Positions 722 through 46,475 of a stretch of 64,000 bases of DNA are shown one piece after another. The notes below the pieces were generated by a model that was not told the DNA's origin, did no database searches, and worked only from the letters and a program-made list of their open reading frames with translations. Every line of letters begins with the position of its first letter. Positions within the stretch are counted from its first letter, which is position 1. Position numbers and translations under genes: made by a program. Source of the DNA: a virus (Duplodnaviria; Heunggongvirae; Uroviricota; Caudoviricetes). The stretch is taken from the IMG/VR virus record IMGVR_UViG_3300045988_154391, one strand, 5' to 3'.

Positions 722-1837
722 TTATTCAGCTGCCACCGGTTTTAACAAGCCAGCATCGAGCAGTTTACGCGTCAACCACTGCTGGCCTTTACCCGTTAAT
801 TGAGGCGTCAACCGTATCTGGTAGCCATCTTCATCATCCAGCACCACTTCTTTCACCGTGAAATACCCCGCGTTGATGTACTGCTGGAACGGCACATTTT
901 TACGTCCACCGGACGCTATCAGGATGCCGTTCTCCCGTAACCAGACAAACAGCGCGTTTTGCTTAAGTCCAACAACCTTTGCAAAATTCCCAATCAGGAT
1001 CCCTTTAGCTACTGATACCCGGTCGGCAAAATCGACTTTAGGAGCGGCGGCCACCAGCTGCTGATTTAGCTGGTGGGCTTTCTGTTCCAGAAGCTGCTTT
1101 TGTTCAGCCAGTTCGGCAGCCAGGCGCAGAGCTTCTGGAAGCGTCTGGGGGATTGCAACCGGTTGCTGTTCTTTTTGCCGGAAGTAGCTGTCTTCCAGTT
1201 TTTCAAAGAATGCCCATGCCTGATCGGTTTCGAGCATTTTAGCGTGGCGGGCTGCGCCGCGTTCCGTCCAGAGGATGAGTGAGCGGGCTTTAGGAGAGAT
1301 AGGATTTTGTGAGTTACTTAAAGTCACCCGCAAATTGTTCAAATCATCTCCAATAACTTTATAGAAATGCTTGCCTTCACAAAAACGTTCAGCATTACGG
1401 GAAAAGTTCTTCTTGATGTTATCCGCATCTGTCCCATACCCCTTAGCAAGGATCTTAGTTGTCACTACACGCACTCCCTGCCACTCTAGAACGGGAATTT
1501 CATCCGGCTGACTTTGAACAACCACCAGTTCTGATTCCTGAACTAAAGGTGTATTAATTTTTTCAGATTTAACGTTAGTAGCTTTCATTCTGTGTGCCTC
1601 CTTGCGTGTTTCGGCTGCGACGGTTGCGTAATTCAGATGCCCCTGTTCGAGCAGGTATTCACGGATATCAGACAGCAGGATACGGTGAACAGCGTTCTTG
1701 TCCTTTCTCCGGTAAAGTTGTTTGGTGATCATGAAGTAGTTGGCAATAACGCCTGGTATATCCCTGGTACTGATACAGGCAGTGTGCTGTTCAATTGCCT
1801 CGATCATCTCTTCACGGGTGACTAATGACGTTCTCAT
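722..1837 (-). CDS. ant: Antirepressor (Ant1-like): shared N-terminal region, central ORF6N/Bro-like segment, C-terminal KilAC/ANT domain
   Basis: 371 aa; C-terminal about 130 aa nearly identical to ORFs 51524..52570 and 50560..51360; start codon overlaps the stop of the upstream 73-aa gene (ATGA). Confidence 0.7.
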   Translation of the reverse strand: MRTSLVTREEMIEAIEQHTACISTRDIPGVIANYFMITKQLYRRKDKNAVHRILLSDIREYLLEQGHLNYATVAAETRKEAHRMKATNVKSEKINTPLVQESELVVVQSQPDEIPVLEWQGVRVVTTKILAKGYGTDADNIKKNFSRNAERFCEGKHFYKVIGDDLNNLRVTLSNSQNPISPKARSLILWTERGAARHAKMLETDQAWAFFEKLEDSYFRQKEQQPVAIPQTLPEALRLAAELAEQKQLLEQKAHQLNQQLVAAAPKVDFADRVSVAKGILIGNFAKVVGLKQNALFVWLRENGILIASGGRKNVPFQQYINAGYFTVKEVVLDDEDGYQIRLTPQLTGKGQQWLTRKLLDAGLLKPVAAE

Positions 1838-2055
1838 AGTCCCTCCTGAGCAGAAGCGTTAACAGGGAGGCACCAGTAACTGAGAGAATTGCGTGAATCA
1901 GTGGAAAAACGGGCAGAGAAAATACATGGGGCGTCAGGAAGCTGAGAGCGGGCCTCATCTTCTGTCGGTGCAATAACGAAGTGATAGTGACGTTTTTGGC
2001 AGGAGTAAAAGCGCCAGATAAATTCAGGATGAGTTGGGGTAGGGATAGTAGCCAT
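1834..2055 (-). CDS. icd: Icd-like small protein (73 aa), paralogue of ORF 52567..52788
   Basis: ORF 1834..2397 trimmed to the Met that aligns with the 73-aa paralogue (shared FIWRFYSC..HYHFVIA.TEDEARSQLPD); translationally coupled to ant as icd/ant are in P1. Confidence 0.5.
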   Translation of the reverse strand: MATIPTPTHPEFIWRFYSCQKRHYHFVIAPTEDEARSQLPDAPCIFSARFSTDSRNSLSYWCLPVNASAQEGL

Positions 2056-2213
2056 ATTGGCAGCCTCCTTAGACGTTGGTATGTAACCACCGCAGAAGAG
2101 ACCAATCTTGCTGGCGGTGGACTGTACGGAGTTGGCCTTACTGGCGTCCAAGGTAACCAGCCTACCCGAAGGTAGCCCCATACAGCCCACCATTGTAGAG
2201 GTGTGCGTGTACG

Positions 2214-2241
2214 CCGATACAAAAAAAGACGCGAGCGGCGT
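2214..2241 (-). terminator. Hairpin (GACGC-N5-GCGTC) followed by a T7 run on the minus strand, inside the leader upstream of the icd-like gene
   Basis: Read directly; lies between the operator-like site at 2374 and the icd-like start at 2055; could mark the 3' end of a short leader or antisense RNA. Confidence 0.3.
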
Positions 2242-2373
2242 CTGTATCGCCTTAGACTTAAGCGGGAGGCCAATCCCGGCACCCGTTTTAATGAGGTGCC
2301 TGATAAGCATAAACCGAAAATGCCTCAAGGCGCAAGAGGTCAGGTTCAATGTAACATCGGCAGTTAAAAAACA

Positions 2374-2390
2374 CAATTTATTAGAGCAAA
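2374..2390. promoter_or_regulatory. C1-operator-like 17-mer (15/17 to ATTGCTCTAATAAATTT, reverse orientation)
   Basis: caATTTATTAGAGCAAa read directly; immediately 3' of pacB and upstream of the icd/ant-like module. Confidence 0.45.
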
Positions 2391-2393
2391 TAT

Positions 2394-3878
2394 TCATTCA
2401 TTAAGCCATGCCAGAGCTTCATCAACCTGCGCTTCGTCTTCGACGCTAAGCACTTCATCCTGGGGAACATAATCCGCCAGCATAGCGAAACAATATGTAT
2501 CCCAATGGTCTGGTGAGTGCAGGTTGAGTTTTTTCTTCATATCCTCCTTACTCATCACCTTCCATTGACCTGCGGAGTTAATCCCTACAGGGATTTTCGA
2601 CGCTTCCTCAATAGTTTCATTACCCTTATCCAGTCTCATACGACCAGATTTTACGGCCTCTGCGGCTTGAACGTTGGCATAAGCACGTTTATCAAAGTAC
2701 AGGCTCTTATCTTCACGGCTATGCATCTTTTTACCCCAGCGTATACGCTGTACGGTAATACCATAATACTCGTACATCAGATCCGCCGTTGCTTTACCCA
2801 GCCCATCACCGTCTATCGCTATGGTGATATTTGGAAATCGCTCAGGATTACATTCTGCGAAAATTTTGGCGGCAAGCTGCGTTTCTGTAACGTCTGTGTA
2901 TTCCAGCATTCGATAGTTGATTACACGGCGTTTATTTCTCTGGCCGGACACCATCATGATATTGATAACGGACTTATCCCGTCCCGTACCACCAGCAACG
3001 TCCACACATGCAAGCCAGCCCCATCCTTTGGCAATCTTGACTTTCCGCCGCGTCGCACGTTCAACCTCATCACGTCCAAGAAGGAAGCCATCCTGTGATT
3101 TAGGGAATAGTCCGCGTACCTTAATCATGTACATAGGGTTATCACGCCCGCCGTACTCCGCCAGCTTCATTTTGATAAATGCTGGCGTTACCAGCGGTGA
3201 TTCCTCACTGTTAAGCGTGATCGCCGTATAAACGCCATCAGGGTTACCAGGACGCTTGGCCAGTTTATGGTGAGTATCGTAGAAATAGCCGCTTGGGCGT
3301 GTAGGCTGTGACAGTAATAAGATGCGGTTATCCTGTCCGGTAAGAGCACCGGTGATGATACCGAAAGCTCTATCACTGACACCGGAGGCTTCATCGATAA
3401 TATACAGAAGATGATCTGCGTGTTCACCGGCGAGAGCTTCTTCACTTCCCAGACGAAAGCCCTTCGGTACTACAGTCCATACACCTTTACCAGTAACCTC
3501 ATAGAAAGCGGTTTCTGTCAGAACAAAATAATCAGCAAGCCATGGAAAACGGCTGGTGGCAGTAGCCCAGTTTATCTTGATGTACTTGAATATACCGGTC
3601 ATTACCTGCTGAATTTTGTTCGCAACGATAATGGCGCGGGCACCGGGATACATGATTATGAACAACATGATCATGATAGAAGTCATGTCTGATTTCCCGG
3701 TACCGTGACCAGACGAAACAGATGTCTTGCTACCCTGTTCCTGCACAGACTCAATAATCAGATCCTGCTGCCAGGTAGGTGTTTTGCCGAACAAAACATC
3801 AGCGGCAGCAATCCAGTCATAACGATATAGCGCCACCAGCTCGCGCCAACGTGGATCCGTTACGCAACTTCTGGCCAT
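2394..3878 (-). CDS. pacB: Terminase large subunit (PacB-like)
   Basis: 494 aa; Walker A-like SGHGTGKS; sits directly after pacA with a 1-nt overlap; size matches what I recall for P1 PacB. Confidence 0.75.
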
Positions 3879-5071
3879 TAATCATCATCCCCGTATAGCT
3901 TGCGGGTAACTTCTTCGTCTTCCTCCTCGTCTTCGTCCAGGTCTTGTTCCAGCCATGGGTCGTTTGATACACCTTCAGTATCAACATCTCCATAACCGCC
4001 TGTATCAACGATATCGGCGATTTCTTCCCTACGCTGCTCAATCCACAATGCGGCATCGGCGCGGCGGTTGGCGGCCCGTTCTCGCGCAACTTTGTCCAGA
4101 TCTTCAAGAGAAGGGCCACCGACGGCTGTTTGCCTTTCCTCATCATCGGTATTGGTCTTAGGAGCACGCAGATCGGCTTTGATTTGCTCCAGCATCAGGG
4201 GCGGCACTTTTCCGCCATGCGCCTCGATGAATTCAGCTGCTTCCAGCACTGACCAGTTATTTTCACGCTTTCGTTCGTATGCCAGCTTAACAATGCCAGC
4301 TTGCCCCATAGATAAAGCGTGCTTTTCCGCCTCCCGGCTTTCTTTTCGATAGTTATTCCGAATGCTGTAAATGGTGTTGATCAGGCTGCTTATCTGCGCG
4401 GAACAGCTGTTTAGCATGCTCGCGATACGATATTCAGGCGGAGTCCCTTCATCATCGTCTTTTTGCTGATCGCGCATTTCCTGCACCAGACGAATACACG
4501 TATCCCTGGCGTTCTCCAGCATAAGGAGATGAGAAAGAGACTTTTCCAGAAGAGTGGTTTCCAGAACATCGGCCCCGGACCGACGCAACATAGCGCGCGC
4601 GGCCTTCCGCGCTTCAACGTTATCTATCAGGTAATCGCCAGCTTCGAATTCAAAGCGTTCACCATCATCATCCAGGGTGTCGCGTTCCAGGCGATCACGT
4701 AAGGTCCGGTGGGCGCGGGTGATCACGTCATGATCATCAGAACGATCATTTATGCGCTTATTTTGGCGCTTCGCATTCTCGACTGCGGCACTGACAACGG
4801 CATTAACCCTTTGTTTTTCCGCTATTTCAGCCGCAATGTGATCACCTGCATGTTGATCATTAGAGTGATCAATGATCATGCTTTTTAGTGGCTTCCTGAC
4901 TGGCTTATTTGGCTTGCGGCTGTCCGCTGTCCTGGTGTCTTCTTTGAAGGCACGGAGATAACGACGTGCAGTATTAGGGTTAAGATTAAACTCGGCGGCA
5001 TACTGTGCGATGGTGTAACCACCATCTCGCGCCAGGCGAGCAAAATTCTTCTTGTGATCGTCCCAGGTCAC
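3878..5071 (-). CDS. pacA: Terminase small / pac-recognition subunit (PacA-like)
   Basis: 397 aa; N-terminal HTH-like segment; acidic C-terminus; contains the GATC-hexamer pac site. Confidence 0.7.
4690..4880. other. pac packaging site: two clusters of four GATC-containing hexamers about 95 bp apart
   Basis: GATC at 4693, 4721, 4732, 4744 and at 4840, 4855, 4867, 4874, mostly as TGATCA/C/T; matches the Dam-regulated P1 pac architecture inside pacA. Confidence 0.6.
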
Positions 5072-5156
5072 TTATGCTTCCTTTCGTAAAAACTCTTTTT
5101 GACGCGAGGGTAACGAAAGTCACATGTCAAAAGGCCCGGAACGGGCAAGCAATCAA

Positions 5157-10926: not shown

Positions 10927-11206
10927 GACCTTCCTCCTTTGGCTTGTGAATTTGTATCGTCATGCCGCTTTGAGTGGTGACTACAACGACAGAACCAGGC
11001 TGAAGACTGTTAAGATTGAATGCTTCGTAAAACGAAGCCAAGGCCAGCGCTTTTTTATTCTTTCGGTTCCACCAACGCCATCCATTGCTACAGGCTACAC
11101 TGACAATCCACTGTCCACTCCTGTAAGCCATATAAAACCAGATGAGCAAAACCTGAATGAATGCTATCCAGTCAATAATCGTATATTTCGCGAAGGAGAC
11201 CATCAA
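10919..11206 (-). CDS. Small membrane protein, paralogue of ORF 12804..13127
   Basis: 95 aa; one hydrophobic helix then a conserved ...A..FYEAF.L....PG... domain; 4-nt overlap with the preceding Ea22-like gene. Confidence 0.45.
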   Translation of the reverse strand: MMVSFAKYTIIDWIAFIQVLLIWFYMAYRSGQWIVSVACSNGWRWWNRKNKKALALASFYEAFNLNSLQPGSVVVVTTQSGMTIQIHKPKEEGRG

Positions 11207-34728: not shown

Positions 34729-35630
34729 TGCTTAGCCTCTCCACCAAGGGCATTTACCAGAGCATCAACCAGGCACGAAATTTCACTGGTCAACAGGAAG
34801 AAATCTGCGTCCAGTCGCTGCGCTACATCTTCACTATCAATATCAGAGTTCTGATCAAGCAATTCATCCGCAAATTTGACGCTGGTAAGGCTGAAGTTAT
34901 GGTCCAGTGTAAATTTAATGCGGTTCTGCCAGTCGAGTGCCAACTTAGTGACGAGCTTGCCAGCTTCCAGGTGTGTGGAAATTTCATCGCTTCCCAAATC
35001 CTGCTTTTTCACTCGGGCAATACCGCCATCCTCAAGCACTGCCTTAAGTTCTGCCGCATCCCCCATTTGAAATCCCTGTGGAGCACTACCATCACGTACC
35101 CAGTCGGTCAGCGTTAATTCAATGGGATTTTCAACACTCAGGGGAACAACAGGAAGAGAACCCAGAGACTTACGCATAAGCGCGAGCATATCCTCTGCCT
35201 GCCGCGCGCTGGCATTGATATAGATACGTTTAGTTGAACCGTCGTAGATCGCCTGGATAACAGAAAACTTTGAAAAAGCCCGTGGCAGAAGAGAATGCAG
35301 AACTTCGTCTTTCAGGGAGTCCTTCTCTGTTTTCTTCAGTTTACGCGCTTGTTCTTGCTCAAGTTTTTCAATTTTTTCTTGAATAGCTCGCTGGATAACC
35401 GGCGGGGGAAGAATTTTTGTTTCGCGCTTTGCTTCAACAAGGATAAAACCATTTCCATGCATAGCGATAACTTCGGAATTATCACCAAATGGAGATACAA
35501 AACCGAACTTGGCCATATCCTGACTACCGCATGGCGTGAAAAGGATCATTTTCTTTTTATCTTCTAAGTCGGTCAGATCCGCCTCACGAGAAAGTTTATA
35601 AATAGTAATGTTTTTCCAGTGCTTAAACAT
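34725..35630 (-). CDS. hrdC: RdgC-like recombination-associated protein
   Basis: About 301 aa from the [13 protein letters not shown] start; [13 protein letters not shown] and [24 protein letters not shown] are near-identical to host RdgC as I recall it. Confidence 0.85.
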
Positions 35631-35979
35631 GTTGTAACCCTTGAATATCAACCACAGAAAGCTCGTCTTTGTAGAAAAAGGCCAGGTTGTGGCACCCCCT
35701 CGTTTGAGCGTATGAGCTGGGACCAATTTCGTTCTTCCAGACAAATGGCTTCAAATCCGTACGGCGAAGCATAAAAACGCGATTTGTTCCGCTCTGATTC
35801 CCAATGAGGCAAAAGCCTTCTTTCACCTTGATAGCCTGCAAGTTGTCGAGTTCACCGCTGGTTACACGGCTATCGAACTCTTTGCGGCTTATTAGCTCCA
35901 TCTGCATCTGACGACTCCAAACAAATGCCCATTGAAGGGCGATGGCTGAATGGTACCGAAAATACGACATAAAAAACAA
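35623..35979 (-). CDS. Hypothetical protein upstream of hrdC
   Basis: 118-aa ORF whose start abuts an operator-like site; first gene of the apparent three-gene dmt operon. Confidence 0.4.
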
Positions 35980-35995
35980 TATTTATTAGAGCAAT
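35979..35995. promoter_or_regulatory. C1-operator-like 17-mer (16/17)
   Basis: AtATTTATTAGAGCAAT at the 5' end of the minus-strand operon. Confidence 0.5.
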
Positions 35996-36076
35996 TTTGC
36001 AATAGTTGAACTCCATGTAGACCACAAACAACCTGAGTTAAAATAACGAAAATCAGAGCAAATAATTGGTGATGAC

Positions 36077-36361
36077 GTGGCAAGTATTGCAACAAAAGAC
36101 AGCATTTGTTCGGGGCACGGAGGATTCCCATCCAGGCCTCCTGTAGAGAGTGAACCACTACTTAAAGTCAACGGAGTCGAAGTGTTAGTTGATGGTAAGC
36201 AATATGCACAGCATACCGATGGAAACAGTACGCACGGTGGGCAAGCTATATCAACCAGGGCATGGTTTACCGTCAATGGTAAAGGGATCGTATGCGTTGG
36301 TGACCCTGTTTCATGCGGATCTACCGTAGCGTCCGGAGACGGCCTGGTTCAGGTAAGTTAG
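36077..36361 (+). CDS. PAAR-like spike-tip protein (putative)
   Basis: 94 aa; ICSGHGG, HTDGNSTHGG and VGDPVSCGSTVASGDG resemble PAAR repeats; appears to start on GTG. Confidence 0.5.
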   Translation: MASIATKDSICSGHGGFPSRPPVESEPLLKVNGVEVLVDGKQYAQHTDGNSTHGGQAISTRAWFTVNGKGIVCVGDPVSCGSTVASGDGLVQVS

Positions 36362-36369
36362 GAGATATC

Positions 36370-37158
36370 ATGCTGGAAAAAGACTACCAGTTATCCGCAT
36401 ATAAAAAATTGGCTGCCGCCGGTGGGATGAAAACACCTGGTGCCATAACATCAGCACGAAACAGTGCTAACACAGCAAAACTGCTTGCAGAAGAATTGAC
36501 CGGATTAATTCTGGATACAATTGTCTATCCCGACACTATTACCAGCTATGTTTCAACGATCAGAACAACCACAACCGGCTTAACGAACATTGGAGAACTG
36601 GCAACTAAGCACGCGGACCTGTTGGCTGGTTATGCAGATCTGTCAATGCTGCTTCAACTCGATATTGGTTGGGATGTTTACTGCCGTGCTAATGAGCGAG
36701 AAGTATCAGAACTGCCGATCTCTATTGCCATTGGTGATGTGACTATTACTAAATCGCTTGAGGACGCTGTAAACGCGCTTAATACATCAAGTTTAGTCGC
36801 TGCTATGGGGGAGATTAACCAGACCCTTAACACTGGCTCAGGAAGCTCGTCAGGCTCTGGTTCAGGCGGCGGCACTGCCACTCCCCCACCAGCACTAACA
36901 GAAGAGCAAATTGAATCTCTGAAAGTAGCAACTGAACAGTTTGGGGTTGTTTTCAACCAGACAACAGCGCCCACAACTGCGTTACAACAGCAGTATGAAC
37001 GAGCGAATGAAAGCGCCAATGTAGCCATAACTGCTTATAACCATGCTATCGGTACTGCTCTTGCGGAAGCATCAGCAAATAAGGCCAGCACAGCCAGCGC
37101 AGTTGCTGCTTTGGTTCCTGATTCTGTTCTTGATGAATTAAACAAAGCGGCACAGTAA
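36370..37158 (+). CDS. Hypothetical protein with a Ser/Gly-rich linker
   Basis: ORF 36313..37158 trimmed to the ATG at 36370, which has an AGGAG 5-9 nt upstream. Confidence 0.45.
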   Translation: MLEKDYQLSAYKKLAAAGGMKTPGAITSARNSANTAKLLAEELTGLILDTIVYPDTITSYVSTIRTTTTGLTNIGELATKHADLLAGYADLSMLLQLDIGWDVYCRANEREVSELPISIAIGDVTITKSLEDAVNALNTSSLVAAMGEINQTLNTGSGSSSGSGSGGGTATPPPALTEEQIESLKVATEQFGVVFNQTTAPTTALQQQYERANESANVAITAYNHAIGTALAEASANKASTASAVAALVPDSVLDELNKAAQ

Positions 37159-37197
37159 CAAAGGACTTCATTGATAATTTTTTTTCAGGAGGAAGAC

Positions 37198-37620
37198 ATG
37201 TCATTCTTTTCTACGTTAAAAACAGCTTTGTCTTTGAAGGAGAAACTTGCTGCTACTGGTGTTCTTGTTCTGATTTGCGCACTTGTTGGTGCTGGGTTTG
37301 CATGGGAACGTCATCAGCTAAAGCAAGCCATCGAGAAAATTGGCAGTCTTGATCAGGCTGTTAAGGAACGTGATAAGTCAATAATGGATCTTAACCAGAC
37401 CATTGAGACGATGAACAAAGCAGAGCAACATTTTCACAGCCAGGAAGTGAAAAATGAATCAGAACAAGCCAAATATGCTGACAGGCAAATGGAACGAAAA
37501 GCTGAAGTTCAGAAACAACTGGTTGCGGCGGGTAATGTTCGCCAGCGCATTCCTGCTGACACTCAGCGGTTGCTCCGGGAGTCGATCAGCGAATTTAACG
37601 CCGACGCCGACAAAGGTTAA
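37198..37620 (+). CDS. Putative i-spanin (Rz-like)
   Basis: 140 aa from the ATG at 37198 (AGGAGG upstream); N-terminal transmembrane helix then coiled-coil periplasmic domain. Confidence 0.5.
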   Translation: MSFFSTLKTALSLKEKLAATGVLVLICALVGAGFAWERHQLKQAIEKIGSLDQAVKERDKSIMDLNQTIETMNKAEQHFHSQEVKNESEQAKYADRQMERKAEVQKQLVAAGNVRQRIPADTQRLLRESISEFNADADKG

Positions 37621-37786
37621 CCACCCTGCCCCCAAAAGTGCATTTATGTGCAGAATGCCAGAGTTTAGCAGTGAATATTTTGATGATCTGCCAGCGTATA
37701 TCCTCGATACAGAAACGATGCTGATGGGGATTAACAGGAAGAATCGCAACGTTAATGATTACAACCGCGCTATCAGCGGTAACTAA
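37535..37786 (+). CDS. Putative o-spanin lipoprotein (Rz1-like), overlapping the 3' end of the i-spanin in another frame
   Basis: 83 aa; MFASAFLLTLSGC signal with lipobox; Pro-rich mature part; starts 86 nt before the i-spanin stop and extends 166 nt past it. Confidence 0.5.
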   Translation: MFASAFLLTLSGCSGSRSANLTPTPTKVNHPAPKSAFMCRMPEFSSEYFDDLPAYILDTETMLMGINRKNRNVNDYNRAISGN

Positions 37787-37797
37787 AAGGGATTTTT

Positions 37798-38190
37798 ATG
37801 TCTGATAAAGTAACAGTAAAGCAAACTATCAACAAAGCGACTTCAATCTACAAAATTGAGCACATCACTGTTGGCAAGCCAGGATCTGAACAATACCGTC
37901 ATGCTTTCGAGCTTGCCGATCAGCTTGGTTTAAAACACCCGGATTGCATTGAGCATGTATTTCCGACCTATGCTGATGAGCAATGTACTCATGTTCTTAC
38001 CGAAGAGGATTTTTTCAGCACTGAAGAACGAGAAGGCGTTGATCGCTGCATTGGTGTGATTTGCTCTTCAGTGAGTTATGAGTTATTCCCTAATGTCCAT
38101 GAAAATGGTGGTATTGGATACCAATTCCTGTACGAAGGCGATGAGCTTAAATGTTATGAACATGGTCTTCTTATCGAAAGCGTAGAATAA
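37798..38190 (+). CDS. Hypothetical protein
   Basis: 130-aa ORF adjacent to the plasmid origin. Confidence 0.45.
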   Translation: MSDKVTVKQTINKATSIYKIEHITVGKPGSEQYRHAFELADQLGLKHPDCIEHVFPTYADEQCTHVLTEEDFFSTEEREGVDRCIGVICSSVSYELFPNVHENGGIGYQFLYEGDELKCYEHGLLIESVE

Positions 38191-38232
38191 TACCCTTCCT
38201 TCCAACCGGCTATGTTGGCCGGTTTATTCAAC

Positions 38233-38303
38233 TTATCCACAGCATAGATCCAATAAACAGATCCTAAAGAGAACCCAGGAAGATCCAAAGAAGATCCCGG
38301 ATC
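38233..38303. other. Plasmid origin region: consensus DnaA box plus five clustered GATC sites
   Basis: TTATCCACA at 38233-38241; GATC at 38247, 38260, 38282, 38293, 38300, mostly in AGATCC heptamers. Confidence 0.6.
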
Positions 38304-38343
38304 GCTGTAAGCCGCGCCATTTCTGGCCTGAAATGGGATCAAC

Positions 38344-38450
38344 ATTGACTATACGCGATTTTATGTTGACTGTGCACGATTTATTGTTGACTGCACGCGA
38401 TTTATTGTTGACTATACGCGACAGAAACATTGACTGTACGCGATTTTAGA
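38344..38450. repeat. Five direct iterons upstream of repA (incC-like)
   Basis: Five copies of (A/G)TTGACT(A/G)(T/C)(A/G)CGCGAT-like units at about 21-bp spacing. Confidence 0.7.
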
Positions 38451-38523
38451 GCCTGACTATTCACAGTTGTTGATAACTGCAATCCAGATGACGCCAGGCC
38501 GCGACACATATGGAGAAACCACG

Positions 38524-39408
38524 ATGCCGGAAGAAAATAAAGGCTTCCTTAGCGTTGAAGAAGTTGCAGGAAATACAGGAGAAATCCACAGCCTGAAACC
38601 CAATAACAATAGCACTATACAACCCATCGCTTTGTTGCGCTTAGGTGTGTTTGTGCCAACCTTAAAATCTACCAATGTGGCACTACGTCGCGGATCGTCA
38701 GTTACTACAAACACAACGAACGCAACCGAAGAACTATCAAGCCTCAAAATTGTTGAGCAGGAAGGCTATGAGGGAATTGAAATACATGGTCCACGCCTGG
38801 ATATGGATACTGATTTTAAGGTGTGGGTGGGCATAACCTCCGCGTTGTTTGACTACGCACCTGATGATGACGGCATAATCACCCTGCCATTCTCCGAGTT
38901 TGCCGATCGATGCGGCTATCCACGTAAGCGCCTTTCAAAGGCGTTCCGTAAAAGTATTGATGACTCTCTGACACGCATTCAGCAGACAGTTGTCAAATTC
39001 CGCTTCCCGGCGGCAAAAGGTCATCTCAATAACATTAACGTCAACTTGTTGGCATATAGCAGCCTGAATACCGAGCTTGATGTTATCGAGATCCAGCCGC
39101 AGAAACAGCTATCTGAACTTTACTATGTTGACTATAAGCGAATCCTGAAGCTGAAGATGCTGGATAAGCTCGGGCGCAAAGAGACGGCCAAGGTACTGTA
39201 TACATTCTTTGAGGCTCTACCTGCCAACCCGGCACCTGTCAGCATTGAGCGCCTTAGAGCAAGGCTTAATCTCAAATCATCCGTTAGCGTGCAAAATAGC
39301 GTTATCAGAAAAGCCATGAAAGATTTGGAAGCTATTGAATATCTTAAATTTTCAGAGATAAAAAACGGCAGGAAAATCGGCTTCCAGATCCATAAGCGCA
39401 ATCCATAA
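38524..39408 (+). CDS. repA: Plasmid replication initiator RepA
   Basis: 294 aa from the ATG at 38524 (GGAG upstream); P.ALLRLGVFVP and GPRLDMDTDFK resemble P1 RepA as I recall it. Confidence 0.8.
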   Translation: MPEENKGFLSVEEVAGNTGEIHSLKPNNNSTIQPIALLRLGVFVPTLKSTNVALRRGSSVTTNTTNATEELSSLKIVEQEGYEGIEIHGPRLDMDTDFKVWVGITSALFDYAPDDDGIITLPFSEFADRCGYPRKRLSKAFRKSIDDSLTRIQQTVVKFRFPAAKGHLNNINVNLLAYSSLNTELDVIEIQPQKQLSELYYVDYKRILKLKMLDKLGRKETAKVLYTFFEALPANPAPVSIERLRARLNLKSSVSVQNSVIRKAMKDLEAIEYLKFSEIKNGRKIGFQIHKRNP

Positions 39409-39409
39409 T

Positions 39410-39690
39410 ATTGACTATATGCGATAGCGAGAAGTTGACTATAGGCGACATTCGTTGACGCTGGTGGATTTTTGCTGGCGTCAATATTCTGCAAGCTGCT
39501 ATTGAGATGGCTTTTAGGGTCATTTCATCGCGTATAGTCAACGTTTCTCCCGACAATATCTTACATAGTCGATTTTTGGTGGAGTTAAATCGACTACAGT
39601 CAACTTTTGACTGTAGTCACATCGCGCATAGTCAACTATTCACATTAACTTTCGCGCATAGTCAACATTTGCGCGGTTCTCATCAAGCAG
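39410..39690. repeat. Iteron array downstream of repA in both orientations (incA-like copy-control locus)
   Basis: About 8-9 copies of TTGACTATA(T/G)GCGA and its reverse complement. Confidence 0.6.
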
Positions 39691-39700
39691 TGGTATTGAT

Positions 39701-40510
39701 ATGCAAGAAGAGAAACAACACTACCTCTACGTTCTGGTGCCGGAGAACGGAGATACTTTTAAAATCGGCATTTCATGTGGTCCATTGGCACGGTTTAAAG
39801 GGCTACAAGTGAATCCCGATTTTGCGCTTTCACGGGTCTATCGTGGTACGCGTTTGGCAATAGTTAATCTTGAGCGGGCTTTACACGCAACCTTTTTCCC
39901 CTGGAATGCGCCGTGGGAGAAAAGCGCCGGTGGCGGGCATACTGAATGGTTTACACGAGAGTGTCTTGATAAGGTTTTGGCTCATATCGAATATCTAAAT
40001 GATATGTGGGGAGGGATTCTCGAGCGGATTAAGTCGAATGATTTACTTCAGCGTCCAGTAGATGCTGCTCGCTCTTTCGAAAAAGAACTGGATGTTACTT
40101 CTATCGTGACTTTCAAAGATGACGCAGGAATGAGGGATGTGGCTTATGTCTCCATATCTGGCTATGAACCTGACGCGATCCGCGCTCAATGTGAATTGCT
40201 GAAAGCGATGTTTACGCTTCGGACTAAATATCCCTGGGAGACAGGGCGGGTGTGCTTCCCTATGGAAGAGTTAACCGCCACCATTGATTCCCAGCTTTAC
40301 CACGATAATCCAGAGAAGTTTTTTAGCCTTTTAGCCGGTAATGGGCTTAACTGTGTGTCCGGACTGGGGCGAAGTAGAATCCAACATGCCTCGCTCTTCG
40401 GTCCCTTCTTTTACGATCGAAACGGGTGCTTTGAGGCTGAACTTCCGGCGCTTACGCGTGCTATAGATACTATCGATTTCGAACGATTATTCGCAGCTCT
40501 TAACAAATAA
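39701..40510 (+). CDS. T5orf172/MUG113-type (GIY-YIG-like) domain protein
   Basis: 269 aa; N-terminal YLYVLVPENGDTFKIGIS...RFKGLQ...GGGHTEWF matches the T5orf172 signature as I recall it; lies between the iterons and parA and has its own terminator. Confidence 0.5.
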   Translation: MQEEKQHYLYVLVPENGDTFKIGISCGPLARFKGLQVNPDFALSRVYRGTRLAIVNLERALHATFFPWNAPWEKSAGGGHTEWFTRECLDKVLAHIEYLNDMWGGILERIKSNDLLQRPVDAARSFEKELDVTSIVTFKDDAGMRDVAYVSISGYEPDAIRAQCELLKAMFTLRTKYPWETGRVCFPMEELTATIDSQLYHDNPEKFFSLLAGNGLNCVSGLGRSRIQHASLFGPFFYDRNGCFEAELPALTRAIDTIDFERLFAALNK

Positions 40511-40517
40511 CACTGAT

Positions 40518-40538
40518 GCCCCTGAACGGGGCTTTTTT
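40518..40538 (+). terminator. Rho-independent terminator
   Basis: GCCCC-tgaac-GGGGC followed by TTTTTT, 8 nt after the stop. Confidence 0.65.
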
Positions 40539-40678
40539 GTGCCCTCCTTGCAACTCTCTATCGTGCAAAATGAACCAAACATGCAGAGAATGCTATGTAC
40601 AAGCATCTACGCATACATTATTATTTTATGCAGCATTTTTAATTAAATTCAAAAATACAGCATAAAGGATGACTTTCG

Positions 40679-41875
40679 ATGAGTGATTCCAGCCAGCTTC
40701 ACAAGGTTGCTCAAAGAGCAAACAGAATGCTCAATGTTCTGACTGAACAAGTACAGTTGCAAAAGGATGAGCTACACGCGAACGAGTTTTACCAGGTCTA
40801 TGCGAAAGCGGCACTGGCAAAACTGCCTCTACTGACTCGAGCGAACGTTGACTATGCCGTAAGTGAAATGGAAGAAAAGGGTTATGTTTTCGATAAACGC
40901 CCTGCTGGCTCTTCAATGAAATATGCGATGTCAATTCAGAACATCATTGACATATATGAACATCGCGGAGTGCCAAAATACCGGGATCGCTACAGCGAAG
41001 CGTATGTGATTTTCATCTCCAATCTTAAAGGCGGTGTGTCAAAAACTGTATCGACGGTTTCTCTGGCGCATGCAATGCGTGCTCACCCTCATCTTCTGAT
41101 GGAAGATTTAAGGATTCTGGTTATTGACCTTGATCCGCAATCTTCAGCAACGATGTTTTTAAGCCATAAACACTCTATTGGTATCGTAAACGCAACATCT
41201 GCACAGGCTATGTTGCAGAATGTAAGCCGTGAAGAGCTGTTAGAGGAGTTTATTGTTCCTTCTGTTGTACCTGGGGTTGACGTTATGCCTGCGTCGATTG
41301 ACGATGCCTTTATTGCATCCGATTGGAGAGAGCTGTGCAATGAGCATCTACCGGGTCAGAACATCCATGCTGTCCTGAAAGAAAATGTGATTGATAAGCT
41401 GAAGAGCGATTATGACTTTATCCTCGTTGATAGTGGTCCTCACCTTGACGCCTTCCTGAAAAATGCTTTGGCCTCGGCCAATATACTGTTTACACCTCTG
41501 CCGCCAGCAACTGTCGATTTCCACTCATCGCTTAAATACGTTGCCCGCCTTCCTGAGTTGGTGAAACTCATTTCGGATGAAGGCTGCGAGTGCCAGCTTG
41601 CGACTAACATTGGTTTTATGTCCAAGTTGAGTAACAAGGCAGACCATAAGTATTGCCATAGCCTGGCTAAAGAAGTGTTCGGTGGGGATATGCTCGATGT
41701 CGTCCTCCCTCGCCTTGACGGTTTTGAACGTTGCGGCGAGTCTTTTGACACTGTTATTTCAGCTAACCCGGCAACGTATGTTGGTAGTGCTGATGCATTG
41801 AAGAACGCGCGAATTGCCGCGGAAGATTTTGCTAAAGCAGTTTTTGACCGTATTGAATTTATCAGATCTAACTGA
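40679..41875 (+). CDS. parA: Partition ATPase ParA (type Ia, with N-terminal HTH extension)
   Basis: 398 aa; deviant Walker A KGGVSKT. Confidence 0.9.
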   Translation: MSDSSQLHKVAQRANRMLNVLTEQVQLQKDELHANEFYQVYAKAALAKLPLLTRANVDYAVSEMEEKGYVFDKRPAGSSMKYAMSIQNIIDIYEHRGVPKYRDRYSEAYVIFISNLKGGVSKTVSTVSLAHAMRAHPHLLMEDLRILVIDLDPQSSATMFLSHKHSIGIVNATSAQAMLQNVSREELLEEFIVPSVVPGVDVMPASIDDAFIASDWRELCNEHLPGQNIHAVLKENVIDKLKSDYDFILVDSGPHLDAFLKNALASANILFTPLPPATVDFHSSLKYVARLPELVKLISDEGCECQLATNIGFMSKLSNKADHKYCHSLAKEVFGGDMLDVVLPRLDGFERCGESFDTVISANPATYVGSADALKNARIAAEDFAKAVFDRIEFIRSN

Positions 41876-41891
41876 GGAGTAAGAAACCCCC

Positions 41892-42893
41892 ATGTCAAAG
41901 AAAAACAGACCAACAATTGGGCGAACCCTTAATCCTTCAATATTAAGCGGATTTGATAGTTCTTCAGCCTCTGGCGATCGAATCGAGCAGGTATTCAAGT
42001 TATCAACTGGTCGCCAGGCCACATTTATCGAGGAGATAATTCCTCCGAACCAGGTAGAAAGCGATACCTTTATTGATCAGCATAACAACGGGCGTGACCA
42101 GGCATCTCTTACGCCAAAATCATTAAAAAGTATCCGAAGCACTATTAAGCATCAGCAATTTTACCCTGCAATAGGTGTTAGACGGGCTACAGGGAAAATT
42201 GAAATTTTGGATGGTTCCCGGCGTCGAGCTTCTGCCATCTTAGAGAACGTAGGGTTGCGGGTTTTAGTCACGGACCAGGAGATCAGCGTTCAGGAAGCGC
42301 AAAATTTAGCGAAAGACGTTCAGACAGCATTGCAGCACAGCATTCGAGAAATAGGTCTGCGTTTGATGCGAATGAAAAATGATGGGATGAGTCAGAAGGA
42401 TATTGCAGCCAAAGAAGGACTGTCTCAGGCGAAGGTCACGCGTGCTCTCCAGGCAGCGAGTGCTCCGGAAGAATTAGTCGCCCTTTTCCCTGTGCAGTCG
42501 GAATTAACCTTTTCGGACTACAAAACGCTTTGTGCTGTTGGCGACGAAATGGGGAACAAGAATTTAGAGTTTGATCAGCTTATTCAAAACATATCCCCGG
42601 AAATAAACGACATCTTATCCATTGAAGAAATGGCCGAAGATGAAGTTAAAAATAAAATCCTGCGCTTGATAACAAAGGAAGCCTCACTACTCACGGATAA
42701 AGGTTCTAAAGATAAGTCCGTAGTTACTGAATTATGGAAATTTGAGGACAAGGATCGCTTTGCAAGGAAGCGCGTGAAAGGCCGTGCATTTTCTTATGAG
42801 TTTAATCGACTTTCAAAAGAGCTACAGGAAGAACTCGACAGGATGATTGGGCATATCCTTAGAAAGAGCCTCGATAAAAAGCCGAAGCCTTAA
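41892..42893 (+). CDS. parB: Partition protein ParB
   Basis: 333 aa; immediately downstream of parA and followed by parS-like heptamers. Confidence 0.9.
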   Translation: MSKKNRPTIGRTLNPSILSGFDSSSASGDRIEQVFKLSTGRQATFIEEIIPPNQVESDTFIDQHNNGRDQASLTPKSLKSIRSTIKHQQFYPAIGVRRATGKIEILDGSRRRASAILENVGLRVLVTDQEISVQEAQNLAKDVQTALQHSIREIGLRLMRMKNDGMSQKDIAAKEGLSQAKVTRALQAASAPEELVALFPVQSELTFSDYKTLCAVGDEMGNKNLEFDQLIQNISPEINDILSIEEMAEDEVKNKILRLITKEASLLTDKGSKDKSVVTELWKFEDKDRFARKRVKGRAFSYEFNRLSKELQEELDRMIGHILRKSLDKKPKP

Positions 42894-42894
42894 A

Positions 42895-42985
42895 CTTTCG
42901 CCATTCAAATTTCACTGTTAACCTACTGTTTTTAAAGTAAATCAATCTAAAATTTCAAGGTGAAATCGCCACGATTTCACCTTGG
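42895..42985. other. parS partition site (box A heptamers and box B hexamers around an AT-rich spacer)
   Basis: TCGCCA at 42898 and ATTTCAC at 42909; then GTGAAAT, TCGCCA, ATTTCAC at 42960-42980. Confidence 0.65.
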
Positions 42986-43097
42986 ATTTTACCTTCCTCC
43001 CCTACTCCCGAAAAAAATAAAAAAATTGCTTGTCACGAGAAAGTCAACAAGTGACTTTCAATAAAATCTCTTCCGAAAAGGGATTCACACAAGTGCC

Positions 43098-44825
43098 TTG
43101 TGTTTAAGGAAGAGTAAATTGAGTAACTTACGCGAATACCAGAATCGTATTGCAGATATCGCAAAACGCTCTAAAGCTGTGCTTGGCTGGGCAAGCACTG
43201 CGCAGTTCGGTACTGATAACCAATTCATTAAAGATGATGCCGCGCGTGCCGCATCTATCCTTGAAGCTGCACGTAAAGACCCGGTTTTTGCGGGTATCTC
43301 TGATAATGCCACCGCTCAAATCGCTACAGCGTGGGCAAGTGCACTGGCTGACTACGCCGCAGCACATAAATCTATGCCGCGTCCGGAAATTCTGGCCTCC
43401 TGCCACCAGACGCTGGAAAACTGCCTGATTGAGTCCACCCGCAATAGCATGGATGCCACTAATAAAGCGATGCTGGAATCCGTCGCAGCAGAGATGATGA
43501 GCGTTTCTGACGGTGTTATGCGTCTGCCTTTATTCCTCGCGATGATCCTGCCTGTTCAGTTGGGGGCCGCTACCGCTGATGCGTGTACCTTCATTCCGGT
43601 TACGCGTGACCAGTCAGACATCTATGAAGTCTTTAACGTGGCAGGTTCCTCTTTTGGTTCTTATGCTGCTGGTGATGTTCTGGACATGCAATCCGTCGGG
43701 GTGTACAGCCAGTTACGTCGCCGCTATGTGCTGGTGGCAAGCTCCGATGGCACCAGCAAAACCGCAACCTTCAAGATGGAAGACTTCGAAGGCCAGAATG
43801 TACCAATCCGAAAAGGTCGCACTAACATCTACGTTAACCGTATTAAGTCTGTTGTTGATAACGGTTCCGGCAGCCTACTTCACTCGTTTACTAATGCTGC
43901 TGGTGAGCAAATCACTGTTACCTGCTCTCTGAACTACAACATTGGTCAGATTGCCCTGTCGTTCCCCAAAGCGCCGGATAAAGGCACTGAGATCGCAATT
44001 GAGACGGAAATCAATATTGAAGCCGCTCCTGAGCTGATCCCGCTGATCAACCACGAAATGAAGAAATACACCCTGTTCCCAAGTCAGTTCGTTATCGCGG
44101 CTGAGCACACGGTACAGGCGGCGTATGAAGCACAGCGTGAATTTGGTCTGGACCTGGGTTCCCTACAGTTCCGCACCCTGAAGGAATACCTGTCTCATGA
44201 ACAGGATATGCTGCGTCTTCGCATCATGATCTGGCGCACTCTTGCGACCGACACCTTTGACATCGCTCTGCCGGTTAACCAGTCCTTTGATGTATGGGCA
44301 ACCATCATTCGTGGCAAATTCCAGACTGTATATCGCGACATTATTGAGCGCGTTAAATCTTCTGGTGCGATGGGGATGTTTGCTGGTGCTGATGCAGCAT
44401 CTTTCTTCAAACAGTTGCCGAAGGATTTCTTCCAGCCAGCCGAAGACTATATCCAGACTCCGTATGTTCACTACATCGGTACCCTGTTCGGTAACGTGAA
44501 AGTGTACGAAGTACCTGCTGGTATTTGTAAGAACTTAACGACAGAGAACATTCAGTTCAGCTCGATGGATGTGCTGTGCTACGTCCGTGATGAAAATCCG
44601 GGTAAAGCAGGCTTTGTGACTGGTGATGCTGTCCCGGCTATCCCGTTCCAGCATCCGACCACTCCGGCGCTGGTCAACCGTACCACACTGTGGGGTTCGG
44701 CTATCAACGATATGCACCCACGCAACGGCGCTGATTACTTCACTCGTGTAACGCTGACAATGGCCAAAAAAGGCGGGCTTAACTTTATAAGCGGCGACAC
44801 GATTGATGCCGGTGACTCTGAGTAA
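43098..44825 (+). CDS. Large structural protein, possibly the major head protein (P1 gene 23 position)
   Basis: Track ORF starts on TTG at 43098; a second TTG at 43119 has a better AGGAAGAG upstream; functional call is from synteny only. Confidence 0.4.
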   Translation: MCLRKSKLSNLREYQNRIADIAKRSKAVLGWASTAQFGTDNQFIKDDAARAASILEAARKDPVFAGISDNATAQIATAWASALADYAAAHKSMPRPEILASCHQTLENCLIESTRNSMDATNKAMLESVAAEMMSVSDGVMRLPLFLAMILPVQLGAATADACTFIPVTRDQSDIYEVFNVAGSSFGSYAAGDVLDMQSVGVYSQLRRRYVLVASSDGTSKTATFKMEDFEGQNVPIRKGRTNIYVNRIKSVVDNGSGSLLHSFTNAAGEQITVTCSLNYNIGQIALSFPKAPDKGTEIAIETEINIEAAPELIPLINHEMKKYTLFPSQFVIAAEHTVQAAYEAQREFGLDLGSLQFRTLKEYLSHEQDMLRLRIMIWRTLATDTFDIALPVNQSFDVWATIIRGKFQTVYRDIIERVKSSGAMGMFAGADAASFFKQLPKDFFQPAEDYIQTPYVHYIGTLFGNVKVYEVPAGICKNLTTENIQFSSMDVLCYVRDENPGKAGFVTGDAVPAIPFQHPTTPALVNRTTLWGSAINDMHPRNGADYFTRVTLTMAKKGGLNFISGDTIDAGDSE

Positions 44826-44885
44826 TCAGGGGAAGTTCTCCGTTTAACATAGCGCCCCCGTGCGGGGCGCATAACAGGGAAAGTT

Positions 44886-46475
44886 ATGTCTCAATATTCA
44901 ATTCAACAGTCATTAGGTAATGCATCCGGCGTCGCTGTTAGCCCGATCAATGCCGATGCGACGTTATCTACCGGTGTTGCATTAAATAGCAGCTTGTGGG
45001 CTGGTATTGGCGTATTTGCGCGTGGCAAGCCGTTTACTGTTCTTGCGGTTACTGAGTCCAATTACGAAGATGTTCTCGGCGAACCGCTGAAGCCGTCTTC
45101 CGGCTCACAGTTCGAACCAATTCGCCATGTATACGAAGCTATTCAGCAAACGTCAGGTTATGTTGTTCGTGCTGTTCCGGATGATGCGAAGTTCCCGATT
45201 ATTATGTTCGATGAATCAGGCGAACCGGCTTACAGTGCGTTGCCATACGGTTCTGAAATTGAACTTGATAGCGGCGAAGCCTTTGCTATCTACGTTGATG
45301 ATGGTGATCCGTGTATTTCACCTACCCGTGAGTTAACCATCGAAACGGCAACAGCGGACAGCGCAGGTAATGAACGCTTCCTCCTGAAACTGACCCAGAC
45401 GACTTCGCTCGGCGTGGTAACGACCCTGGAGACACACACTGTGTCTTTGGCGGAAGAAGCAAAAGATGACATGGGCCGCTTGTGTTATCTGCCTACGGCT
45501 CTGGAAGCCCGTTCTAAATATCTGCGCGCGGTTGTTAATGAAGAGCTGATTTCGACGGCGAAAGTAACAAATAAAAAATCGCTGGCGTTCACTGGCGGTA
45601 CCAACGGCGATCAGTCGAACATTTCCACTGCTGCTTACCTGCGTGCGGTGAAAGTGCTGAACAATGCGCCGTACATGTACACCGCTGTTCTTGGCTTGGG
45701 CTGCTATGACAATGCGGCTATCACCGCATTAGGTAAAATCTGTGCAGATCGCCTGATTGATGGCTTCTTTGATGTCAAACCGACATTGACGTACACGGAA
45801 GCGATCTCTGCTGTTGAAGATACCGGTTTACTTGGTACCGATTATGTAAGCTGTGCTGTCTATCACTACCCGTTCTCCTGCAAAGACAAATGGACCCAAT
45901 CCCGTGTGGTCTTTGGTCTGTCTGGCGTGGCGTATGCGGCGAAAGCTCGTGGCGTCAAGAAAAACTCTGATGTCGGCGGTTGGCATTACTCACCGGCTGG
46001 TGAAGAACGTGCCGTCATTGCTCGTGCGTCAATTCAACCGCTGTATCCGGAAGATACCCCGGACGAAGAAGCAATGGTCAAGGGCCGTCTCAATAAAGTA
46101 TCTGTTGGCACCTCTGGCCAGATGATCATCGACGATGCTTTAACTTGCTGCACGCAGGATAACTATCTGCACTTCCAGCACGTCCCATCCCTGATGAATG
46201 CAATCAGCCGTTTCTTTGTCCAGTTAGCCCGACAGATGAAGCATAGCCCGGACGGTATTACTGCGGCTGGCCTGACTAAAGGGATGACCAAACTTTTAGA
46301 TCGCTTTGTCGCCTCCGGCGCTCTGGTGGCTCCTCGTGATCCTGATGCTGACGGTACAGAACCGTATGTGCTGAAAGTTACGCAGGCGGAATTCGATAAA
46401 TGGGAAGTAGTCTGGGCTTGCTGCCCGACTGGCGTAGCCCGTCGTATCCAGGGCGTACCGCTGCTTATTAAGTAA
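44886..46475 (+). CDS. Putative contractile tail sheath protein
   Basis: 529 aa; central AVLGLGCYDNAAITALGKICADRL resembles the sheath-protein VPG...ALA motif; weak recollection-based similarity. Confidence 0.45.
   Translation: MSQYSIQQSLGNASGVAVSPINADATLSTGVALNSSLWAGIGVFARGKPFTVLAVTESNYEDVLGEPLKPSSGSQFEPIRHVYEAIQQTSGYVVRAVPDDAKFPIIMFDESGEPAYSALPYGSEIELDSGEAFAIYVDDGDPCISPTRELTIETATADSAGNERFLLKLTQTTSLGVVTTLETHTVSLAEEAKDDMGRLCYLPTALEARSKYLRAVVNEELISTAKVTNKKSLAFTGGTNGDQSNISTAAYLRAVKVLNNAPYMYTAVLGLGCYDNAAITALGKICADRLIDGFFDVKPTLTYTEAISAVEDTGLLGTDYVSCAVYHYPFSCKDKWTQSRVVFGLSGVAYAAKARGVKKNSDVGGWHYSPAGEERAVIARASIQPLYPEDTPDEEAMVKGRLNKVSVGTSGQMIIDDALTCCTQDNYLHFQHVPSLMNAISRFFVQLARQMKHSPDGITAAGLTKGMTKLLDRFVASGALVAPRDPDADGTEPYVLKVTQAEFDKWEVVWACCPTGVARRIQGVPLLIK

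Follow-up and report, generated by a model that had tools for sequence, protein, structure and literature searches.

Background

In ICP1-like phages, genes with a T5orf172 domain have been described as putative homing endonucleases that lie at the boundaries of genetic exchange (Barth et al. 2023, PMC10448857). The T5orf172 homing genes of ICP1-like and T5-like phages are freestanding, adjoin essential replication or structural genes, mark the boundaries of exchanged segments, occur sporadically and join a conserved nuclease domain to a modular, fast-changing second domain. Here we describe a gene, further called X, that shares these properties as well as the Pfam nuclease domain itself. It is an open reading frame (ORF) of 269 amino acids with an ATG start (39701..40510 on the plus strand, stop codon included) in a stretch of Caudoviricetes DNA, IMGVR_UViG_3300045988_154391, of which the whole analysed length of 64 kb is referred to as the window. 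Unlike the phage genes, which carry a zinc finger (CapR, DUF723 or DUF4397) or a Bro-N or KilA-N module, X possesses an acidic, winged-helix-like second domain. Its nuclease domain is N-terminal, it resides in the plasmid-maintenance region of a temperate phage-plasmid, and its homing is putative.

Another close counterpart is Odn (ICP1 gp88), in which a T5orf172 nuclease is coupled to a RepA_N domain and which cleaves the PLE origin at its iterons (Barth et al. 2021, PMC8263062). X and Odn have in common the nuclease domain, a second domain resembling the iteron-binding domain of an initiator, and a setting of competing, modular RepA/origin cassettes; the targeting domain of Odn, however, is homologous in sequence to the DNA-binding domain of the initiator, a homology not seen between X and five RepA proteins. 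CapR, found in PLE satellites, likewise stems from a T5orf172 homing gene and acts in a conflict between mobile elements, but consists of the DNA-binding domain only and works as a repressor, whereas X keeps the nuclease domain and its conserved residues. The Seg proteins of phage T4 and I-TevI combine an N-terminal catalytic domain of the GIY-YIG superfamily with a C-terminal DNA-binding domain, and their genes are intergenic and optional; in mixed infections, the freestanding T4 enzymes bring about the exclusion of markers and co-convert flanking DNA. X resembles them in the N-terminal placement of its GIY-YIG-superfamily domain and in being intergenic and optional, and differs in belonging to the T5orf172 subfamily (FKIG for YIG) and in having an unrelated acidic C-terminal domain. 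With SLX1 and HIGLE (PDB 6seh, 7cq2, 7wme), X shares the fold only, at 11-15% identity; SLX1, unlike X, acts on branched DNA together with SLX4 and contains a RING/PHD finger.

P1-like phage-plasmids are widespread and carry genes for extended-spectrum beta-lactamases (ESBL), mcr and other resistance genes. According to published surveys, they come in two replicon types with frequent switching along the backbone phylogeny, and 17 switches of replicon type were counted on a core tree of 193 P1-like elements (PMC11165635). No mechanism for this switching was offered in the literature examined. For phage JL22 it was mentioned that repA' (p0111) and an unknown gene, gp57, take the place of the IncY repA (PMC9603915). 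This mention and the label 'GIY-YIG nuclease family protein' in public databases constitute what was already known of X, and no functional or comparative study of it was found in the searched literature. New in the present analysis are its position at the cassette end across three RepA types, the shared breakpoints, its transfer between cassettes, its rate of pseudogenisation and its winged-helix, possibly Rep-WH1-like, C-terminal domain. We tentatively read X, at somewhat less than an even chance, as a selfish or competitive nuclease, freestanding and similar to a homing endonuclease, that sits at a recombination boundary.

Results and discussion

X closes an exchangeable replicon cassette

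By its sequence, the window belongs to the P1-like phage-plasmids of the SJ46/RCS47/JL22 type, with a replicon known as 'p0111', and its part from 38400 to 42900 is 98.4-98.8% identical to these three phages. Alignment with blastn matches window 35001-38327 to P1 (locus L001) 1174-4506 at 95.9%; P1 homology ends at 38327, inside oriR, beyond the DnaA box and GATC repeats and a short way ahead of the first iteron (in the P1 annotation, oriR spans L001:4384-4625, with the DnaA box at 4405-4422 and the first iteron at 4522). The homology resumes at 40577, from where window 40577-45000 aligns to L001:5998-10421 at 99.2% (blastn), and this restart lies 19 nucleotides before the -35 hexamer of Ppar, which in P1 occupies L001:6017-6045 and has a promoter-like counterpart at 40596-40624. 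As P1 homology stops and restarts at these two points, the 2.25 kb in between (38328-40576), comprising iterons, repA, again iterons, X and a terminator (Table 1), form an alternative replicon cassette. RepA of the window is 41-43% identical to P1 RepA and 83-84% identical to the RepA of a related locus, L002; the iterons are of the type TTGACTATACGCGA in the window, and of the ATGTGTGCTGGA type in P1 and in another related locus, L071.

On these alignments, the 2.25-kb block replaces the whole IncY cassette of P1 (incC, repA, incA and a 171-bp spacer), and X is the last gene of the alternative cassette and not an insert in the incA-parA gap of P1. An earlier note on this DNA, which had viewed X as a cargo gene placed at the replicon/partition junction of P1, therefore has to be revised on this point, given that homology breaks at 38327 and 40577 and the entire cassette is exchanged. 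The layout it described was accurate: a 269-amino-acid protein does lie between the inverted iterons (39526-39671) and par (parA from 40679), it is followed by a terminator of its own, and comparison of the incA-parA interval confirmed that canonical P1 (NC_005856) has no gene there. The incA-Ppar spacer of P1 (L001:5827-5997) gave no significant tblastn or blastn match to X, a search that does not separate loss in P1 from gain elsewhere.

To see how general this position is, an exhaustive HMMER search of 1.8 billion representative proteins was used, which yielded 166 relatives of X at E <= 1e-3, almost all of them matching through the N-terminal nuclease domain only. The C-terminal 166 amino acids are common to only four lineages, namely that of the window (a 90% cluster of 1241 sequences), P0004 (locus L002), P0009 (L071 and L072, Salmonella enterica) and P0011 (L073, from a faeces metagenome). 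All four belong to P1-like elements with the order repA, iterons, X, Ppar-parA, parB, and they stand behind three types of RepA: a p0111-like type (window and L002, 83% identical to each other), an IncY-like type (L071, 83% identical to P1 RepA and with P1-type iterons) and a third type (L073, 43-49% identical to all others). In the three lineages other than that of the window, the upstream neighbour of X is that cassette's own repeats. The cassette is present in 404 PLSDB plasmids, with a single match covering at least 80% of it, and X as its conserved last gene, in 391 of these 404, and X in 401; X further occurs in 412 of 5426 complete E. coli genomes, almost always on plasmids. IncY plasmids with a P7-type par are without X.

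Exchange boundaries and movement of X

A second, independent cassette swap at the same breakpoints is seen in the alignment of L002 with L071. The two have one backbone (ParA 100%, ParB 98% and gp23 99% identical, flanks 96-99% identical in DNA) but different cassettes, p0111-like and IncY-like respectively. Homology breaks at L002:8830 and restarts at 11020, boundaries equivalent to those between the window and P1, and X is the last cassette gene at these breakpoints too. With identical par genes, the X proteins of L002 and L071 are only 29% identical; the shared backbone with different cassettes thus indicates that X travels with rep and not with par.

Transfer of X from one cassette type to another, with its position retained, also seems to have occurred, although this conclusion is based on four lineages. 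Identity of RepA and of the N-terminal domain of X amounts to 83% and 64% between the window and L002, to 43% and 62% between L071 and L073, and to 41-49% and 35-42% in pairs across the two X clades. L071 and L073 differ widely in ParA (57% identical) and ParB (43%), and their repA genes give no DNA alignment; the DNA for the N-terminal domain of X, 76% identical over 231 nucleotides, is the sole alignable DNA between the backbone and parA. Because their X proteins are closer than their RepA proteins, the common ancestor of X is presumably more recent than that of repA.

Closely related genomes differ at this locus: X is found in p0111-type elements, L071, L073 and L002 and is missing from P1 and from IncY plasmids that have a P7-type par. 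This optional presence and, on four lineages, a phylogeny discordant with that of the flanking genes are as found for homing genes, and in four of the features tested X is like a freestanding homing endonuclease.

At the same junction, L074 and L075 (NZ_CP040574.1 and NZ_MK256965.1, positions 861-1261) have about 115 bp from the end of incA to parA, a ParA of 401 amino acids, and neither X nor the 171-bp spacer of P1. This arrangement makes the incA end a three-way recombination junction, at which a rep cassette, an optional X and a par type meet.

Wider searches and the possibility of a defence gene

More full-length relatives were sought in further searches. A genome contig search added one close relative and one N-domain-only relative, a viral contig scan with P0009 revealed no further full-length relatives, and a metagenome contig search returned N-domain relatives only and no full-length X. 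A word-indexed search with a 63-sequence profile gave 8 matches. The distant N-domain relatives reside in mixed mobile-element neighbourhoods, with toxin-antitoxin genes, transposases, resolvases and phage genes, and no recurrent partner gene was found in these neighbourhoods.

Such surroundings would suit a defence or counter-defence cargo, i.e. a stand-alone nuclease directed against unrelated incoming phages or plasmids or against host defences and present only by chance in a permissive intergenic site. Defence genes are frequent in phage-plasmids, the nuclease domain of X is joined to a fast-diverging second domain, and the gene is dispensable and still common in the E. coli genomes mentioned above. 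We nevertheless regard this explanation, to which the earlier note had pointed, as unlikely. X matched 0 families of PADLOC-DB 2.0 at E <= 1, and comparison with NCBIfam identified no defence system. The locus has no partner gene and is no variable island: instead of varying systems, the same gene family fills the same slot in four diverged lineages, and among the 1.8 billion representative proteins there is no full-length homologue outside P1-like elements. Moreover, X lacks a sensor, an ATPase and a methyltransferase, and offers no obvious protection for host DNA.

The N-terminal domain is a T5orf172/GIY-YIG nuclease domain

In the profile search, Pfam T5orf172 (PF10544) significantly matches residues 8-85 of X (E = 1.2e-5, 26.2 bits, against a curated cut-off of 20), and the threshold is passed by orthologues as well (25.1 bits for P0009, 26.7 bits for P0011). 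The T5orf172 half of the T5orf172/MUG113 signature proposed in the earlier note is hereby substantiated; the MUG113 half is not, as its 14.6 bits remain under that family's cut-off of 22.3. The N-terminus further matches phrog_681, 'endonuclease', at 1.6e-9, and PHROG 2876, to which no function is assigned, spans the full length of the protein. Sequences of solved structures contained no match at E <= 10.

In an alignment of 63 relatives of the N-terminal domain, 18-45% identical to X, residues Y10, K21, G23, R31, E58 and E82 are invariant (63/63), as they are in all four X orthologues, and S44, L61, H62 (59/63), G79, T81 and F84 are nearly so. Y10, R31 and E82 correspond to the GIY tyrosine, the arginine and the metal-binding glutamate of GIY-YIG enzymes. 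E82 is equivalent to E180 of Odn, mutation of which is predicted by the Odn authors to abolish catalysis (PMC8263062). The tyrosine of 'YIG' is a phenylalanine in X (F20); with phenylalanine in 52 of the 63 relatives, this is a subfamily trait rather than a lesion. The domain has the alpha/beta fold of GIY-YIG enzymes, and by every computable criterion X is a member of the T5orf172/GIY-YIG group. It is therefore probably an active nuclease, as judged from its conserved residues.

The C-terminal domain and a possible link to RepA

The C-terminal 166 amino acids match no known sequence family, in line with the earlier note, which had recognised no motif in them; Pfam run on this domain alone returned nothing at E <= 10. 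Modelled alone, the domain reached a predicted local distance difference test score (pLDDT) of 76 and a predicted template modelling score (pTM) of 0.72, with a shallow alignment behind the model. All structural matches are winged-helix proteins, including ORC, Cdc6 and Cdt1; the longest alignments are with WH1 domains of Rep initiators, and the top match in the viral library BFVD is a COG5527 plasmid-replication initiator (E 0.022, probability 0.99). The modelled winged-helix fold can be considered reasonably safe; a specific kinship to Rep WH1, in view of the modest scores, is only suggestive. An Odn-style chimerism was considered and rejected, since comparison of the domain with five RepA proteins by BLASTP, hhalign and hmmsearch gave nothing significant.

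Between orthologues, the C-terminal domain is only 15-32% identical, compared to 35-64% for the N-terminal domain, a fast divergence of the kind that specificity domains typically show. The four orthologues are uniformly acidic, with an isoelectric point (pI) of 5.4-5.6 for the protein and 5.05-5.24 for the C-terminal domain, compared to 9.3 for RepA. As regards DNA binding, the domain combines a winged-helix-like model with a pI of about 5.1 and the lack of a known DNA-binding Pfam domain; such a low pI is seldom seen in sequence-specific DNA binders and would be compatible with a protein partner.

One such partner might be RepA. X could be a replicon-coupled accessory, of which the Rep-WH1-like domain docks on RepA (WH1 to WH1) or on iteron DNA and brings a nuclease or nickase to the iterons, either of its own replicon, for copy-number control, resolution of handcuffed pairs or regulation, or of a rival replicon, for which Odn is a precedent. 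An acidic domain suits a basic partner, the structural matches with Rep initiators point in the same direction, the start of X and the end of the incA-like array are only tens of nucleotides apart in all four lineages, and X goes with the rep cassette rather than with par. Against this stand the lack of sequence or profile similarity to the RepA proteins and the fact that the window and L002, with the same iterons and RepA proteins that are 83% identical, have C-domains that are only 32% identical. In addition, two unlike RepA/iteron types precede the X clade of L071 and L073, and an element that cut its own origin would destroy itself. X is also dispensable, since P1 does not have it and about 18% of loci, SJ46 among them, have a disrupted copy. 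On balance, we think a replicon-coupled role improbable.

A more combative form of this idea, a 'replicon-cassette drive' or replicon warfare, is speculative and has in our view a small though real chance of being right. The Rep-WH1-like domain would guide X, directly or via pairing with RepA, to the iterons of rival P1-like elements, with the rival destroyed or its cassette converted. X could be transiently expressed on entry, before RepA fills the adjacent iterons. If true, this would provide a mechanism for the frequent IncY/p0111 switching in resistance-carrying P1-like phage-plasmids.

Selection and decay

Pairwise Nei-Gojobori ratios of non-synonymous to synonymous polymorphism (pN/pS) were calculated over the alleles of 43 IMG/VR loci and the window, with 29 X alleles. 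X has a pN/pS of 0.31, similar in both domains, against 0.02 for repA, 0.00 for parA, 0.06 for parB and 0.15 for upfA. These values identify X as a genuine gene on which purifying selection acts, though with far less constraint than on its neighbours.

In about 18% of 45 X-carrying IMG/VR loci, X is disrupted, by three independent nonsense alleles (seven loci) and one TnpB insertion. The nonsense alleles are TCG to TAG at codon 112 (five loci), TGG to TAG at codon 68 (one locus) and CAA to TAA at codon 228 in L040 (X at 4324-5130), a contig corresponding to phage SJ46, so that a named, isolated phage-plasmid has a truncated X. In L045 (8295-10057), the gene is split after codon 98 by an IS605-family TnpB (Pfam OrfB_IS605, Cas12f1-like TNB), with loss of about 230 nucleotides of X. 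The match to X in phage record vB_EcoM-673R5 comes in two pieces, and the gene may be interrupted there. Its absence from P1 together with these disrupted loci makes X dispensable.

The frequency of nonsense, insertion and possibly interrupted alleles raises the question whether X has any current enzymatic role, or is instead a decaying homing-gene remnant or a nuclease-dead DNA-binding regulator comparable to CapR. The phenylalanine in place of the second tyrosine of the GIY-YIG motif and a pN/pS exceeding that of the neighbours by a factor of 5 to 15 or more could be taken in the same sense. However, this ratio is well below 1 and most alleles are intact; the phenylalanine is the norm of the family, and the catalytic-type residues are invariant across very distant relatives. 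CapR-type domestication, furthermore, lost the nuclease domain and kept the DNA-binding domain, whereas X retains the nuclease domain. We therefore consider the loss of an enzymatic role quite improbable. Were X only a decaying passenger, the present results would have annotation value only.

X as a possible homing-like nuclease at an exchange boundary

We prefer, with the reserve expressed above, the homing-like reading because X has conserved catalytic-type residues, a second domain that diverges fast and an optional presence at a fixed intergenic site, and because it has moved between cassettes, commonly occurs as decayed alleles and lies at a recurrent exchange boundary. X would be a two-domain DNA endonuclease, with a T5orf172/GIY-YIG catalytic N-terminal domain and a winged-helix C-terminal domain that confers specificity for a target or partner. 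When a related P1-like genome with another cassette, e.g. IncY P1, which is without X, is present in the same cell, X would cut this rival genome in or near cassette-specific DNA. Recombinational repair via the conserved flanks, with the left half of oriR on one side and Ppar/parA on the other, would then copy X, with or without the replicon cassette, into the rival, or the rival would be eliminated. By its supposed nuclease activity on such a target, X would thus stimulate cassette exchange.

Several considerations weigh against this. The nuclease activity of X and its target are postulated, and plain homologous recombination in the conserved flanks, without any nuclease, can give recurrent breakpoints. 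Part of the distribution is equally well accounted for if X was present ancestrally and was then lost in P1. Acidity is common to the four orthologues, whereas the characterised GIY-YIG homing enzymes are basic. X is also devoid of the zinc-finger, Bro-N and KilA-N modules usual in T5orf172 homing genes, and has its nuclease domain at the N-terminus instead of the C-terminus. No sweep signature was found when synonymous polymorphism (pS) was compared between repA (0.049) and parA (0.048), and a pN/pS of 0.31 still reflects constraint, which makes a benefit to the element or the host possible.

The homing-like reading bears on the biology of these elements in that X may help explain their frequent replicon switching: given its location at an exchange boundary, nuclease-stimulated exchange or exclusion of cassettes becomes a hypothesis for this switching that can be tested. 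If true, the concept of T5orf172 homing genes and Odn would also apply outside lytic vibriophages, in the plasmid-maintenance module of temperate phage-plasmids.

Expression of X

Promoter scanning and reading by eye gave no sigma-70-like promoter between the iterons and the ATG of X, of which the Shine-Dalgarno sequence is weak; the last inverted iteron ends 30 nucleotides ahead of this start codon. As no promoter-like site was found, X is probably expressed by read-through from the RepA-autoregulated repA promoter, modulated by iteron-bound RepA. A terminator scan and folding identified a canonical intrinsic terminator behind X (GCCCC-TGAAC-GGGGC followed by TTTTTTG). A comparable terminator follows X in L073, and L002 and L071 have hairpins without a clear T-run.

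Other features of the locus

Table 1. Features of the replicon cassette and its flanks in the window
Feature	Position	Strand	Basis or remark
Left flank of the cassette	38205..38327	+	Left part of oriR, homologous to P1; contains DnaA box and GATC repeats
Five direct iterons upstream of repA	38343..38443	+	Core TGTTGACTATACGCGA, 21-22 bp spacing; counterpart of incC with another sequence
repA, p0111-type initiator of the Rep_3 family	38524..39408	+	Pfam Rep3_C and Rep3_N
Two direct iterons directly after the repA stop	39409..39448	+	Repeat search
Inverted iteron array, counterpart of incA	39526..39671	-	Repeat search; four clear and two degenerate copies
X, N-terminal domain (residues 1-103)	39701..40009	+	T5orf172/GIY-YIG nuclease fold
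X, C-terminal domain (residues 104-269) and stop codon	40010..40510	+	Acidic, fast-evolving, modelled winged helix
Intrinsic terminator of X	40518..40541	+	Terminator scan, fold
Right flank of the cassette	40577..40678	+	P1 homology restarts at 40577; Ppar promoter/operator 40596-40624
parA (40679-41875) and parB (41892-42893)	40679..42893	+	Pfam HTH_54/AAA_31 and ParB; 99-100% identical to P1

The start of repA is probably the ATG at 38524 (294 amino acids), as backed by alignment with the RepA of L002, which starts with MTSEESKGFL, and with P1 RepA; the mechanical ORF from a TTG at 38467 would encode 313 amino acids. Inside repA, at 39126-39141, lies an iteron-like 16-mer, TGTTGACTATAAGCGA, that is 94% identical to the reference iteron and is kept in the diverged L002 cassette (around 9611); it is perhaps a site at which RepA binds within the gene. 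The inverted iterons, on the minus strand, contain -35-like TTGACT hexamers aimed back at the 3' end of repA, and thus a possible antisense promoter. An Rfam scan over 37500-41500 gave sub-threshold noise only.

The iterons also affect gene calling. The gene call of P0004 includes a spurious N-terminal extension of 41 amino acids consisting of translated iterons (AYSQH repeats), and the window ORF at 39507-39812 is an artefact of the same kind. In the phi456 record (OR339795.1, 39982-40788), X is mislabelled as 'terminase small subunit'.

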